DNA of 26,172 nucleotides from NCBI GenBank assembly GCA_039000165.1, contig JAWBTW010000010.1, positions 1 to 26,172 on the forward strand. The letters run 5' to 3'. Shown here piece by piece: positions 3,001-9,000 of this stretch; positions within the stretch are counted from its first letter, which is position 1, and the number at the start of each line of letters is the position of its first letter. A program made the position numbers. This DNA is from Candidatus Aenigmatarchaeota archaeon (GTDB lineage Archaea > Aenigmatarchaeota > Aenigmatarchaeia > CG10238-14 > SCSR01).

Positions 3001-6000
3001 AATTTGTTTTTCCACTTATAATACTTTTTCTTGCAATTTCGATAGCAAAAGCTCTCGAGTATTCTTCCGCTTCTGTAAATTCTACCATAGCAGGGAAACC
3101 AGCAGAATTTAAAGTTAAATGGTACGATCCTTCAGGTTTATCTGGCTATATTTTTTCTTTAGACAATTGTCAAGGTAGCTTTGTTAATGATAGTTTTGTT
3201 GTTCTTTCCCAAACAAAAACCTTTAACGTTTCTAGTTTAAGTGTAATTTTTGGTAATAACTTAACCTCAGACTTAAGTGCTTTAAACACTCTAGGCGAAG
3301 GTTTAACTTATGACGTAGAAGAAAGCGAAACAAGTAAAGAAGAAAGACAAGAAATTTTAAAGGGGCCTTCTTATTACCTTATCACTTTAAACCCATGGAC
3401 AAACCCTGAAAACGCTTTTTCTTCAGACAATTTATACGCTTACACTTCACAAAGTGGTAGTTTTCAGGATTATGGCTATAACCTTTCAATTCCTCAAGAC
3501 GCAAAAATTATTTCTGTTTTTATTGGTTTCGAGGCTTATGCTTCTGGTAATGAAAGGTTAGAAATTAGTATTTCTTATGACGGTGGAAATACTTATTTAG
3601 GATATACCTTTGATTTACCTTCACAAGACCAGAACCAAACTGTATGGGTAAATTTCACTAACGCTACAGATTGGACTCCAGAAAAACTAAACGATACAAA
3701 TTTCAGAGTAAGGATAAGAAGTGTAAAAGTAGGTGCTATGCAACCAATCTATGTTGACTATCTTCCTATAAATATAACTTACTCTCTTCCACCAAAGTAT
3801 CAGCTAGAAGTTTGGCATGACTCTTTACCAATAAGCTATGAAGGAATTTTAACTTCTATTTCCATAATTTTAAACTTTACTTCCACAGAAACAAAATACT
3901 ATGATTTTGAGGCTTATAATTGGGTTTCAAGTTCATGGGTTAAAGAAGGTTGTGATTCTGGTTTAGTGTTTGCAAATTCGTCAACGATTTGGTATTGTAA
4001 TTTTTCTTCTAATGCTATGAACTTTATTTCTCCTTCAGGTGGAATAAGAGTAAGGTTAAAATCTGAAGAAAGTGAGGAAAAAGCTGTTTTAAAAGAAGAT
4101 TATCTTAAATTCTCTATTATTTTTGCTCCTACAGAATCTTGGAGCACTACCACAAAAACCTTAAGCTCTACAGTAGGTTGTAAAGTTAGATGGTTAGTTT
4201 ATGCGAACAATACTTTAAATGAATGGAGTGAAACCGAAATTTTCGAGTTTTTAACGGCTCAGGAAGCTTTTTGTGGAAATAACGTATGTGATTCAGGAGA
4301 AACTTGTTCTAATTGTTTGCAAGATTGTCCTTGTCCAGGCTCACCAGGATGTTGTGGAAATTCTTGCGGTTGTGAAGAAGGACAAGTTTGTGAGAATAAT
4401 GTTTGTGTAGCTTCAGCTCCTCAACCTCCTCCAACAGCTTTACCACCTTCAATTCCTGTATGCAACCCAAAAACTGATTTGAATTGTTGCATTCAAACCT
4501 ATCCTCAAGGATGTTGCGATTGCCCAAGTTTTGGTTACGTTAACTGTAGCATTTTACCCTTTAATCAAACTTTTGAGGATTGTAAAGAGTTGTGTATGAA
4601 TTTATGCCCAGGAGGATGTTCTGTTTTCTCTAATTCTTCTTCATGTTTAAACGCTGGTTGTTACTGGTGCGACGGAATTTGCCAGCAATTTGCTTGTGTA
4701 AGAGATTGTTCTGTTTTTCTTAGTCCCTCCTTATGTTTAAACGCTGGGTGTGAATGGTGTGATTCAAAATGCAAAGAGCTTTGCTTGCTTAACTGGAGTT
4801 TCGTCCTTCCTTTGAGGATAGAAACTTTTGTTGATTATGAAGTTGAAGTAACAATAAAAATCAAAAACGAAGGAGAAAAAAGTTTTAACAACGTAAAAAT
4901 TCAATTAGTAAATATCTCACCTGATTTTGAGTACAAAATCTTACCAGAGTTTTACCCAAAAATTTTACCAGGAGAAACAAAAAGTTTTGTTTTAAACATC
5001 AAACCTAAAAAAGTTGGAAGTTATATAATAATTATAAATGTAAGCTCAGATGAGGCTTTTCACTTAGCTTACGTTGGTCTATCTTCTCAACAAGCTCCAG
5101 CTAAAAAGGAGCTTATAACTATGACTGCTTTGCTTTGGTTAGCAGTTGCTGTAATAATTGTTTTTGTCATAGTTTCTTATAAGTTGTACGTTAGAGAAAA
5201 AATTAAAGTTGAAGAAAAGATTCCAATCAAAAAAGTCGAAAAAGTGAAGAAAGTTAAAAAAATTAAGAAAAAATACAAGAAAAGATAGTTTTAAACTTGT
5301 ACAGGAGAAGCATAAACTATTGTATCCCCTCTAACTAATATTGTGCCAAGTTTAATCTTGTTATCGTTTCTCTGAATCTCTGCTTCTTCCAACCAAAGGT
5401 TTAAATGTAAATCTAGAGCTTTCAATATTCCTGTAATTTCCTCACCATTTTTCAACTTAACGAAAACTTTCTTTCCTTTTGCTTTATCTAAAGCATCTAT
5501 CGGTCTTTCTGCCATTTCTTTTCACTATTTAATTCAATAAGAAAATATATAAACATTAATTATATTAAAGTTATTGTGAAAAAACTTAAAATTACTCAAT
5601 CCATTTGTCCAGAAAATCCTTTTGAGAAGTTATCTGCAGAGCTTTTCGTCGATGATTTTAACAGAGTGATGATAAGAAAAAATTGTTTAAATCATGGAAG
5701 TTTTGAGGATGTTTATTGGTCAGATTTTGCTCAGTTTGAAAGAGCTGAAAGGTTTAGAGATTTGGGAGATGGTGTAGCTTTACCAAGGAAAATTGAGAAA
5801 GGTTGTCCTTATGATTGTGGTTTGTGCGAGAATCATAGATCAAGAACAACTTTACTGATAATTGATGTTACTAATAGATGCAACTTAACTTGTCCTGTAT
5901 GTTTTGCTTATGCTGGAGCAAAGGGTTATGTTTACGAACCGAGCAAAGAACAAATAGAAAAAATTTTGGAATATGCGCAAGAAGTAAACTATCCAGTAAA

Positions 6001-9000
6001 GGTTAGAGCACTTCAGTTTAGCGGAGGCGAACCAACAGTAAGGGAAGATTTACCTGAGTTAATAAAATTAGCAAAACAAAAAGGTTATAAGCATGTTGAA
6101 GTCAACACTAATGGAATTGTGATAGCAAAGAAAGGAGCAGCATACATAAAAGAACTTAAAAAAGCTGGCATGAGCACTTTTTACTTGCAATTTGACGGTT
6201 TAAAACCTGAAATATACGAGAAAACAAGAGGTCTCAACTTGCTTCCCATAAAACAAAAAGTTATAGAAAGTGCAAGGGAAGCAGGTTTAGATAGTATAGT
6301 TTTAGTTATGACTTTAGTGGGTGGAGTAAATGAAGATCAACTTGGAGAAATTATAAGATATGGAGCAAAGAATTCTGACGTTGTGAGATGTATAAACGTT
6401 CAACCTGTTAGCATTACAGGTAGAATAGAAAAAAGTGAAAGAGAAAGAATGAGGATAACTCTTTCTGATTTCACTAGGCTATGCGAAGAGCAAACTTATG
6501 GACAAGTTAAGAGGGAAGATTTCTATCCTGTGCCTACAATAAACATCCTTGGAAAAATTTTGAACTATTATTTAAAGGGAGGAGAAAGGTATTATCCAGA
6601 GTTTACTGCTCATCCTCATTGTGGCTTAGCAACTTTTGTTTTCACAAAAGGAGAAAAGGTAATTCCCATAACCCATTACATAGATATAGACAAGCTTTAT
6701 TCTGAATTAAAAGAAAACCTTGAAAAAATAGAGAGAACAGAAGAAATTCCAAGTAAACTTAAACTCTTCTATACTTTTCTTAAAAACGCGAAAATAAAAT
6801 TCTTGTCAAAATTACCAAAGCTTTATCCTTTGTTAAGAAGTGGAAGCTATGAAGCTTCTGGGAAATTTATGAGAAGCTTGCTAATGATAGGAGGAATGCA
6901 CTTCATGGATCCTTACAACTTTGATTTAGAAAGAGTTCAAAGCTGTTGTATTCATTATGGTGTGCCTGATAAAAAGGAAAAAGCTAGATTAGTACCTTTT
7001 TGCACTATGAATTCTATTCACAGAGAGGCTATAGAGAAAGAGTTTTCAATACCTTTAGAGAAATATAAAACAATATAAGTTTATTTGACAAAAGGATTTA
7101 AGTGGTATTTATGGCACTTTGGCATGGAGAAAGAGGAAGAAAACCTACAGGAGGGCTAATTAAAGTAGCTAGAAAAAAGAAGAAGTATGAGCTTGGAAGC
7201 TTACCTACTTTTACAAAAGTAGGAAAAGAAAAAAGGAAAAAAGAAAGAGTGAGGGGAGGGGGAATAAAAATAAGAGCTTTTTCTGTAGAATTTGCTAATG
7301 TTTTTGACCCTAAAACAAAAACTGCGAAAAAGGTTAAGATTTTAGACGTTCTGGAAAATAAGGCAAACCCGCACTTTGTAAGAAGAGGTATAATCACTAA
7401 GGGTTGTATAATTAAAACTGAAATAGGAAAAGCAAAAGTTACTTCTCGGCCAAGTCAAGATGGAATAGTTAATGCTATACTGCTGGAAGAAGGATAATTA
7501 TTTATTTGTTTGAAATTTAATCTTAATTATGCCTTTTGGTCTTATTGAAAGATTAAGGAGGAAAGATAGTTCGGAAGAGTTTTCTAAGATTGAGAAAACT
7601 GAATATAAGTCAATACTTAATAATTTGTTAAATGAATTATATACTACAGTAAAAAATTGGAAAAAAGAAATAAGTGAAAGGGGCTACATTCCTTCTCAAC
7701 AAGAAAAAATATACTTGCAAGATTTAATGACAACTACCCGTAAAGCTTCTCGAGTTGCTTTTAATCTAGGCGATCAAAAACTTCAAGATTTGCTATTAAG
7801 CCTTTATGTGAATCTTAAAAAATTACCTTCTGCTAAGCATGTTGAGACTGTAAAAGAGATAGAAAAAGCTGTTGAAAAAATAATGGAACATTACAGGAAA
7901 AAACATAAAATAGAAGAAGAAAAACTAAAGAGCGAGATTCCGGGAATTTTTGTAGTTTTACTCATTTCTTTTCTTTTGTTCTTATTTGTTTCTTACGGAA
8001 GTTTTTCCTCAGGATATTTTGTTAAACCTTCTGATTTAATCTCAATTTCTTTGGTTTTTTCTTTTCTTCTTGCTTTTTCCGTGATTTTACTCTTAAGAAA
8101 TTTATGAATTTTTTTAGATGTTAGACGTCTAACAAAAGAAATAAATTACCTCTTCTCTATTTTTATTTAAATGATTGATGTTCATTGCCATCTTGAACAA
8201 GAAGATTTCTCGCAAGATAGAGATAAAGTTATAGAAGAGTGTAAAAAAGAGTTGAAAGCAATAATAACTTGTTGTGCCCATCCAAAAGATTTTGACTTAA
8301 CCTTAAGTTTAGTTGAAAAATACAAAGGTTTTGTTTTTGCTTGTGTAGGGATTCATCCTGAGTACATAAAAGAAATTTCTGAAGAAGAAAAAAATAATTT
8401 TATTGAAAAGATTAAAGCAAATAAAGATAAAATTGTTGGTATCGGAGAAACAGGCCTAGATTTTTTCTGGATTAAAGAAGAAAATTTCCAAGAAAAACAA
8501 AAAGCTCTTTTTGTTGAGTTAATAAATCTTGCAAAAGAATTAAACTTGCCTTTAATAATTCATTCAAGAGAGGCTTATGAAGAAGCAGTAAAAATTCTTG
8601 AGAAAGAAGATGCAAAAAAAGTTTTACTCCATATGTTCGGTGAAAATCATTTGGCTAAAAGAATAGTTGAGAATGGATGGTTTGTTTCTATGAATACTAT
8701 TGTTCTTAAAAGCAAGAAACATAAGAAAGTTGTTAGAGATGTACCTTTAGAAAGAATAATGCTCGAAACAGATTCACCATGGCTTGGTTTTGGAAAAAGA
8801 AACACTCCTTTGAGCGTGAAAATCGTTGCAGAAAAAATAGCAGAAATTAAGAAAGCTAGTCTTGAAGAAGTGAAGAAAATAACTACAGAAAATTCGATAA
8901 AATTTTTCAATTTGTTTTAAGCGATTAAAAAATTTTCTATTCCAACAATAGTTAAAGTTTTTGGCACAAAAGTAAAACCTTTCAAATCTTTATACCTTCC

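Follow-up and report, generated by a model that had tools for sequence, protein, structure and literature searches.

The closest described system for the gene studied here is the tetraether lipid synthase Tes (GDGT-MAS) of M. jannaschii (MJ0619; PDB 7TOL/7TOM; profile NF045702), in which a rubredoxin motif, C9-C12-C33-H36, is described as a fourth metal site (Lloyd 2022). For the two ether bonds, the described enzymes are the PcrB-family GGGP synthase (PF01884), a TIM barrel, and the membrane-integral UbiA-family DGGGP synthase (DGGGPS; NF009521-3). Rv3378c, a protein of the cis-prenyltransferase (cis-PT) fold, moves a diterpene onto a heteroatom acceptor. Another of this fold, the archaeal MM_0014 of M. 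mazei, O-prenylates alcohols in vitro, an activity that its authors deem non-physiological (PMC8131916). Thaumarchaeota have been reported without CarS and without DGGGP synthase, which could not be found, yet make tetraethers as their dominant lipids (PMC4244643, PMC6431249); given this precedent, the absence of DGGGPS and CarS alone is no proof of host dependence.

We analysed 26,172 nucleotides of a Candidatus Aenigmatarchaeota contig (JAWBTW010000010.1; the window), together with the rest of its genome (G000) and those of related archaea (Table 1).

Table 1. Features at the tes locus and elsewhere in the same genome
Feature	Location	Strand	Remarks
ORF with ribosomal protein eL37	window 2735..3088	-	residues 59-108 match eL37
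796-aa secreted or membrane-anchored protein	window 2898..5288	+	separates eL37 from Lsm in this genus
Lsm (snRNP-like) gene	window 5291..5515	-	divergent from tes; kept neighbour in G049, G084, G087 and G075
tes, tetraether lipid synthase (GDGT-MAS)	window 5576..7078	+	500 aa, GTG start; NF045702 score, 7TOL alignment, motifs
Ribosomal protein eS8	window 7102..7497	+	23 bases 3' of tes; kept neighbour
GGPP synthase	G000 C2:67935-69068		outside the window
IPK-GGR-UppS cluster	G000 C4:44098-46678		outside the window
egsA-like gene (G1P dehydrogenase)	G000 C18:12619-end and C7:start-530		outside the window; split over contig ends
Class I prenyltransferase-fold gene	G000 C7:598-1650	+	outside the window
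cis-prenyltransferase-fold gene	G000 C7:1653-2573	-	outside the window

A resident tetraether synthase

The tes product scores 565.8 bits against NF045702 (curated cut-off 450), matching the 566 bits given previously, and 351.8 bits against the TrsS model, under that model's cut-off of 490. All three 4Fe-4S motif sets align with 7TOL (E=3.4e-140), as the earlier note had claimed: the radical-SAM CX3CX2C motif (C102/C106/C109), the N-terminal auxiliary cluster motif (C77/C81/C84) and the C-terminal cysteines C349, C457/C458 and C476. Domain order is that of MJ0619, and M441 and Y461, corresponding to Met439 and Tyr459, are kept. The gene is intact in five clade genomes (76-98% identity), and its identity as a true Tes/GDGT-MAS orthologue is confirmed. 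Unlike MJ0619, it comes from a genome of 0.78 Mb that lacks PcrB, DGGGPS and CarS, and it carries a four-residue insertion before the last cysteine, near the C-terminal cluster, that is common to this clade and Dehalococcoidia Tes. The rubredoxin site also differs: three of its four ligands are kept, and the second cysteine is Asn or Asp (CPEN/CPED) in all five clade genomes, being missing as well from other Tes proteins over the cut-off.

The order Lsm-tes-eS8 recurs in G049, G084 and G087, and eL37-Lsm-tes-eS8 in G075, making tes syntenic in all four genus genomes and in G075. Its previous placement between an Lsm-eL37 pair and eS8 is right in that Lsm and eS8 flank it; Lsm and eL37 do not adjoin here, the ORF of the 796-aa protein lying between them. 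That ORF is missing at the matching place in G075, a search for a family match to its product found none, and as far as tested the protein stands outside the lipid system. From the position of the eL37 match, the true start of eL37 is probably internal to its annotated ORF. The third-position GC content of tes is ordinary (0.24; mean over 283 ORFs of the genome 0.26, SD 0.03), which together with ribosomal-gene synteny in five genomes rules out host contamination as its source and bears out the earlier view of tes as resident. For this lineage, the doubt raised by Zeng et al. 2022 (PMC8941075), that Tes genes of DPANN genomes might be the host's, is thereby settled.

Tes exceeds the cut-off in 17 of 101 genomes of the order, a wider set than the 10 of 61 counted before; among the 17, PcrB over its cut-off occurs in one (G075; previously one of 10), UbiA matches in three and CarS in one. 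In trees supported by SH-aLRT values only, aenigmarchaeal Tes is polyphyletic, this clade grouping with Dehalococcoidia Tes (SH-aLRT 99 in one tree, 89 in another with one further sequence), while the closest Tes by identity are those of Bathyarchaeia (53-56%). A single ancestral aenigmarchaeal Tes was rejected by an AU test (p=2e-65; 15 rows against 23) on a quick LG+G4 tree, the group being chosen by taxon with two previous trees already known. As part of the best overall explanation, we somewhat favour a history in which Tes was acquired horizontally and has since been long resident.

Canonical lipid genes and the egsA locus

The earlier claim that canonical GGGP and DGGGP synthases are missing holds in all four genus genomes, including G049 with its 802-kb contig: none has PcrB, UbiA or CarS. 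Divergent, overlooked copies in G000 were ruled out by relaxed family searches (E<=1-10) and by phmmer with aenigmarchaeal copies, which returned none. No HMG-CoA reductase was found in the genus, and CDP-alcohol transferase was found in 0 of 5 and CarS in 0 of 4 genomes, so that these show no recognised head-group route. GGPP synthase and geranylgeranyl-reductase-like genes are present as reported; the only GGR of G000 adjoins UppS and may serve dolichol. The scan by motif patterns for genes of the mevalonate pathway and of Fe-S assembly is a weak one.

A gene for a putative G1P dehydrogenase, as reported before, is there as well, in a divergent form: NF002022 is the best family for EgsA, at 158-173 bits against a cut-off of 413 (G087, G049, G075), and the glycerol dehydrogenase score of the protein is below 37 bits. 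Within the order EgsA tracks Tes, occurring in 12 of 18 Tes carriers and 10 of 83 other genomes, although Fisher values for such carrier associations, here and below, overstate them because the carriers are kin and many metagenome loci are near-duplicates. In all four genus genomes the gene order is egsA > class I fold > < cis-PT fold. The same trio, with a nucleotidyltransferase, sits at a different chromosomal site in four Tes carriers of family f4 (G023, G035, G050, G062), of which G035 combines EgsA, both new genes, Tes and a near-complete modified mevalonate cluster without PcrB or CarS. Genus g3 has copies of 371-389 bits in the EgsA slot and the order egsA-pcrB-class I, followed in G079 and G077 by a GGR-like gene; pcrB adjoins DGGGPS or egsA in G058, G088 and genus g3, and all four combinations of first- and second-step enzymes occur. 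Pfam and NCBIfam gave neither new protein a name (no match over cut-off), PDB sequence searches with both gave only hints at E>0.05, and in the main texts of the open-access literature neither family was found described as a lipid enzyme.

Candidates for the two ether bonds

The protein of C7:1653-2573 has a UppS-like fold, with a TDGxR motif lining up with IDGNRR in the UppS of the same genome (the D-G-x-R diphosphate-binding motif). It is unrelated to PcrB, lacking a TIM barrel or PF01884 match, but like PcrB it is encoded beside DGGGPS or egsA. Its top Foldseek match is Rv3378c (E=7e-10), and VIA scores of Z 15-20 link it to cis-PTs, among them Rv3378c and MM_0014 (Z 15.6 and 15.5). Identity to these two is 12-18%, and no role in making lipid backbones is known for either; since ordinary cis-PTs score equally well or better in VIA, a special kinship to Rv3378c is not supported. 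Among 66 metagenome loci of the family, 16 have DGGGPS, 15 EgsA (L255 reads egsA > cis-PT > DGGGPS), 11 archaetidylinositol-phosphate synthase, 18 a class I gene and none PcrB. The family occurs in 6 of 301 Bathyarchaeia and 1 of 38 Hydrothermarchaeota; PcrB passes its cut-off in none of these seven carriers but in 42 of the 43 non-carriers that were tested, and the gene abuts DGGGPS in six and a class I gene in the seventh. The order itself has 10 strong carriers, none with PcrB; in G059, 73% complete, EgsA, the class I gene and Tes occur and a first-step gene was not found. Fold, gene order and mutual exclusion together make it likely that this enzyme replaces PcrB as GGGP synthase.

The product of C7:598-1650 is all-helical, with D102/D105/D109 and D252/D259 invariant in 13 sequences. 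It takes the class I trans-IPPS fold (Z 25, rmsd 3.3 Å over 289 residues) and has no PF01040 match. Although its resemblance to UbiA homologues extends to a distant structural one (Z 14), it best matches soluble trans-IPPS enzymes (Z 25; MoeN5, Z 20.5) rather than membrane-integral UbiA, and its aspartate motifs are non-standard. The best matches are chain-elongating prenyl-diphosphate synthases, so another role is possible (longer chains, dephosphorylation, cyclisation). Its distribution is complementary to that of DGGGPS: within the order, 15 of 15 carriers have EgsA and none has UbiA of at least 109 bits, and in Thermoproteota an intact DGGGPS-grade gene (a 140-bit line, drawn after the scores were seen) occurs in 1 of 10 carriers, nine of which form one syntenic clade, against 30 of 36 controls. 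Two genomes of the Nitrosopumilus type (G600, G444), a group reported to be without DGGGP synthase, carry homologues. Alignment between the two class I subfamilies is poor (hhalign probability 1.5%). Profile A7 has little sensitivity for Nitrosopumilus-type members (G600 at E=0.001; G444 missed though the gene is present), so its blanks in G453, G460 and G650 are uninformative; at the first-guess syntenic position in G444, G453 and G650 no class I gene was found. On balance we favour, by a modest degree, a soluble second-ether enzyme that replaces UbiA-type DGGGP synthase.

Origin of the diether and its implications

Where, then, does the substrate of Tes come from? The earlier note, right about a resident Tes and the missing canonical synthases, had proposed host-derived diether. 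Under that proposal the symbiont would import host archaeol lipids for its own Tes to cross-link into macrocyclic or membrane-spanning forms, the egsA-locus genes doing something else. It suits the missing PcrB, UbiA, CarS, CDP-alcohol transferase and HMG-CoA reductase, the clustering of IPK, GGR and UppS as dolichol synthesis would predict, the non-specific binding of head groups by GDGT-MAS (PMC9433317) and the GDGTs of N. equitans, thought to be host-derived (PMC8941075). It leaves EgsA unexplained despite its tracking of Tes, gives no account of why, in Bathyarchaeia and Hydrothermarchaeota, the cis-PT gene adjoins DGGGPS and is not found together with PcrB, and fails as an inference because two prenyltransferase-fold genes adjoin egsA, with a distribution complementary to PcrB/DGGGPS (Bathyarchaeia, Hydrothermarchaeota, other Thermoproteota). 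We consider it unlikely for this lineage and not the best reading; it may still apply to six Tes carriers of the order in which neither a first- nor a second-step gene was found (G089, G092, G098, G012, G021, G057).

A rather improbable compromise would keep the cis-PT-fold protein as GGGP synthase and deny the class I protein the second ether bond, the cell making mono-ether GGGP, or a lipid derived from it, and obtaining diethers from the host or yet another enzyme. The first-step evidence is indeed the stronger, the class I fold does resemble chain-elongating synthases, G524 retains an intact DGGGPS alongside the class I gene, and the two PcrB paralogues that G075 and G061 each possess could cover both steps. 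Against this, no locus combines the cis-PT gene with DGGGPS and a class I gene at once, G202 (its cluster bears the name Ca. Hecatella orcuttiae) carries cis-PT and class I genes without a DGGGPS-grade UbiA, and stop-riddled DGGGPS remnants occur in 2 of the 10 carriers of the class I gene in Thermoproteota. A Tes subclade with changed substrate or lost activity, working for example on chains of bacterial type, the substrate suggested for Tes homologues of bacteria, would fit the Dehalococcoidia grouping, the insertion shared with it and the rubredoxin cysteine loss in common, but is made highly improbable by the retained cluster motifs, Met439 and Tyr459, the intact gene in five genomes and the closer identity to Bathyarchaeia Tes.

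The reading that we moderately prefer is that the cell makes its own diether by a non-canonical route and Tes then couples the tails, the new activities being predictions. Imported isopentenyl or dimethylallyl phosphate would pass through isopentenyl phosphate kinase and GGPP synthase, whose genes are present, and the divergent EgsA would supply G1P. The cis-PT-fold enzyme would then form the first ether bond and the soluble class I-fold enzyme the second, GGR would saturate the chains, and Tes, very probably a tail-joining enzyme given its orthology, would couple the phytanyl tails, giving macrocyclic archaeol or GDGT. Dependence on the host would fall at the C5 precursor, where the missing HMG-CoA reductase points to archaeol built from imported C5 units, and perhaps at the head group, rather than at the ether bond.

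More tentatively, and as a conjecture that we hold at slightly less than even strength, Archaea may possess a second, non-homologous set of ether enzymes, one a GGGP synthase of the cis-PT fold and the other a soluble DGGGP synthase of the class I fold, which replace PcrB and UbiA, or are replaced by them, in DPANN, Bathyarchaeia, Brockarchaeota and other lineages; on this view scavenged C5 units would let these Aenigmarchaeota make a tetraether membrane of their own. The class I protein may be the second-ether enzyme long missing from ammonia-oxidising archaea, and its family offers a named, expressible candidate for the thaumarchaeal DGGGP synthase. If the egsA-locus families act as their context implies, surveys that call archaea lipid auxotrophs by the absence of PcrB or DGGGPS would err for an entire set of lineages.

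Tetraether synthase and the lipid genes of its genome

Against the Tes equivalog model NF045702 (cut-off 450) the tes product reaches 565.8 bits; it falls under the cut-off of the TrsS model (351.8 against 490 bits) and aligns over its whole length to GDGT-MAS 7TOL (E=3.4e-140), bearing out its earlier description as a Tes orthologue, and adds a member to an established family. As the earlier note had it, all three cluster motif sets (the radical-SAM one and the two auxiliary ones) align with 7TOL, and Met439 and Tyr459 are conserved too. The second cysteine of the rubredoxin motif (C9-C12-C33-H36 in GDGT-MAS; PMC9433317) is missing from Tes in all five genomes of this clade. 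Because tes is flanked by Lsm and eS8 in those five (the genus genomes G000, G049, G084 and G087, plus G075; 76–98% identity) and has a GC3 typical of the G000 genome, it is a resident gene of G000, and the earlier argument against host contamination stands. Tes in DPANN metagenome-assembled genomes was noted before by Zeng et al., who suggest host origin as a possibility (PMC8941075).

As reported before, canonical GGGP and DGGGP synthases are absent: PcrB and UbiA, like CarS, are found in none of the four genus genomes. An incomplete assembly is an unlikely cause, since that of G049 includes an 802-kb contig. HMG-CoA reductase is likewise found in none of the four, and CDP-alcohol transferase in none of five genomes searched. 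The GGPP synthase, G1P dehydrogenase (a divergent EgsA) and geranylgeranyl reductase (GGR) genes listed previously are present in G000, with an isopentenyl phosphate kinase–GGR–UppS cluster; G000 has a single GGR, and G075 and G087 have a second, at 401–406 bits on the DGGGPL-reductase model. Near tes, G049 carries an aconitase X insertion, without HMG-CoA reductase, that is missing in G000.

Positions of the genes and segments discussed
Feature	Location	Strand	Remarks
tes, 500 aa	window 5576-7078	+	NF045702 match
cis-prenyltransferase (cis-PT)-fold gene, 307 aa	G000 C7:1653-2573 (L176)	-	predicted fold; candidate GGGP synthase replacement
Class I prenyltransferase-fold gene, 351 aa	G000 C7:598-1650 (L176)	+	predicted fold; candidate DGGGP synthase replacement
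G600 class I homologue, 375 aa	L325:922-2046		homology to G075 egsA-locus protein
G444 class I homologue	L382:15115-16227		syntenic with G600
UbiA/DGGGPS-like remnant, internal stops	G469:C12:51244-51801		class I carrier
UbiA/DGGGPS-like remnant, internal stops	G555:C9:31827-32204		class I carrier
Tes-like radical SAM genes	G064:C1:59666-65597		far below cut-off; in tandem, adjoining UbiA-family gene
Tes-like radical SAM gene(s)	G022:C2:94297-98566		far below cut-off
Tes-like radical SAM gene(s)	G070:C9; G068:C4		far below cut-off
Fused aconitase X gene (swivel + catalytic domain), G049	L342:4446-5999		two genes downstream of tes
XerA-like recombinase, Cdc6/Orc1-like ATPase, HerA/TraD-like ATPase	window 20668-25968, contig end		looks like an integrated mobile element

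Two prenyltransferase-fold families beside egsA

In all four genus genomes egsA is followed by the 351-aa gene and the convergent 307-aa gene, neither of whose products is given a name by Pfam or NCBIfam. The 307-aa protein has a predicted cis-prenyltransferase fold (model pLDDT 82), with Rv3378c as top Foldseek match (E=7e-10); VIA gave Z of 15–20 against ten cis-PTs, without particularly favouring Rv3378c. The 351-aa protein has a predicted class I trans-prenyltransferase fold (Z 25; model pLDDT 94). The same chromosomal slot holds egsA-pcrB-class I in G008, G077, G079 and G099, with a GGR-like gene next in G077 and G079. Tandem divergent PcrB paralogues (egsA-pcrB-pcrB) occupy it in G061 (L180) and, beside a class I-type gene, in G075 (L173); neither genome has a DGGGP synthase, and the two paralogues might carry out both ether steps. 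In four Tes carriers of family f4 a class I-type gene and a member of the same cis-PT family lie with egsA at a different site (L212–L215), where a nucleotidyltransferase gene separates egsA from the class I gene. We speculate that the nucleotidyltransferase turns G1P into CDP-glycerol before prenylation, which would account for the absence of CarS. One of these four genomes, G035, clusters HMG-CoA reductase, a GHMP kinase, aconitase X, UbiD/UbiX, IPK, a Nudix protein, GGPP synthase, GGR and UppS, and despite this cluster has neither PcrB nor CarS.

Strong matches to the cis-PT family occur in 10 of 101 order genomes, none with PcrB and nine with both Tes and EgsA (counting a split tes in G053); in the tenth, G096, the gene adjoins DGGGPS. 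Outside DPANN the family appears in 6/301 Bathyarchaeia-class and 1/38 Hydrothermarchaeota genomes, with PcrB above cut-off in none of these seven against 42 of 43 non-carriers, chosen out of 332 by handle number. The gene stands directly next to DGGGPS in six of the seven and next to a class I gene in the remaining one, G202, where the best UbiA scores 86 bits, not DGGGPS-grade, against 185–260 in the other four. Among 66 metagenome cis-PT loci, many short or redundant, DGGGPS is present in 16, EgsA in 15, archaetidylinositol-phosphate synthase in 11 and the class I gene in 18, PcrB in none, and DGGGPS never together with the class I gene; one locus (L255) reads egsA > cis-PT > DGGGPS on a single strand. 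An archaeal cis-PT O-prenylates alcohols in vitro, a physiological role being doubted by the authors of that work (PMC8131916). Fold, gene context and PcrB exclusion make it likely that the family behaves as the GGGP synthase, forming the first ether bond.

The class I family has weaker support, and we favour only slightly its reading as a DGGGP synthase substitute forming the second. With a profile partly built from the genomes being counted, EgsA accompanies all 15 order carriers and a UbiA of at least 109 bits none. The gene has nine matches in 401 Thermoproteota genomes, all one syntenic clade, and one of the proteins clusters with Brockarchaeota records. An intact DGGGPS is found in one of ten carriers (these nine and G202) against 30 of 36 controls, taken from 392, at a threshold of at least 140 bits set after the scores were seen; two carriers retain interrupted remnants. 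Against this reading count G524, where the class I gene and an intact DGGGPS occur together, a fold that is that of chain-elongating synthases, and two subfamilies that hardly align to each other, yet both match the joint profile.

Origin and spread of Tes

Of the 101 order genomes, 17 have a Tes above cut-off, and a constraint joining 15 aenigmarchaeal rows as a single lineage was rejected (AU p=2e-65). By identity the closest sequences to G000 Tes are from Bathyarchaeia (53–56%). In the trees its clade pairs with Dehalococcoidia Tes (SH-aLRT 99 in one; 89 in a second, with one extra row), nested in a group rich in Bathyarchaeia and Methanomethylicia; the lost rubredoxin cysteine and a 4-residue insertion are common to both partners. 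In these Chloroflexota (L084, L086–L089, L091–L093, L127) the gene lies, in loci read by eye, mostly flanked by a recR-like and a recO-like gene, a polyprenyl synthase-like gene coming next, and several proteins have Phe in place of Tyr459. A long-branched clade (G012, G021, G057 and G045; L015–L018) has lost the rubredoxin motif and is still above cut-off; G012 and G045 also lack the first cysteine of the N-terminal cluster motif. Three other family members in which neither Tes nor EgsA was found (G088, G058, G055; L170–L172) have canonical ether-lipid clusters of PcrB, DGGGPS, GGPPS and GGR, with CarS, INO1 and AIPS in addition in G088 and G058.

A proposed pathway and its reach

From the genes, predicted folds, gene order and complementary distributions demonstrated here we infer a pathway in which imported C5 phosphate would yield IPP/DMAPP and then GGPP, and DHAP would yield G1P. 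The cis-PT-fold enzyme would probably form the first ether bond and the class I enzyme perhaps, at somewhat better than even chances, the second; GGR would saturate the chains, and Tes very probably couples their tails, by analogy with MJ0619, where coupling acts on saturated chains (PMC9433317). The pathway does not explain how a head group would be attached when CarS and CDP-alcohol transferase are both missing, and the single GGR of G000 may serve both dolichol and archaeol. The earlier note suggested that the symbiont joins host-derived diethers, which fits better the six order Tes carriers with neither candidate gene (G012, G021 and G057 among them); in the genus, both genes beside egsA in every genome count against it.

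The proposed substitution may extend to Thaumarchaeota, in which neither DGGGP synthase nor CarS could be identified (PMC4244643) and, according to Coleman et al., an unrelated enzyme possibly stands in for the missing DGGGPS orthologue (PMC6431249). Two of the six controls without DGGGPS, G600 and G444, encode class I homologues flanked on one side by an inositol monophosphatase-family gene and on the other by an RFC-like ATPase. That of G600 falls with Nitrosopumilus records into a cluster of 564 members, and its homology to the G075 egsA-locus protein is full-length (28% over 360 aa, pairwise E=9e-52); that of G444 is 70% identical to the G600 protein and 31% to the G075 protein. By homology, the Nitrosopumilus-type protein is a candidate for the missing thaumarchaeal DGGGP synthase.

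Searches of open-access main texts turned up no account of either family as lipid enzymes, and PMC11868695, PMC11214058, PMC7852524, PMC9385802 and bioRxiv 2025.10.20.683597 leave our reading unchanged. What makes these findings useful is that both candidate enzymes can be assayed directly, and that one of them could fill a gap still open in lipid synthesis by ammonia-oxidising archaea.
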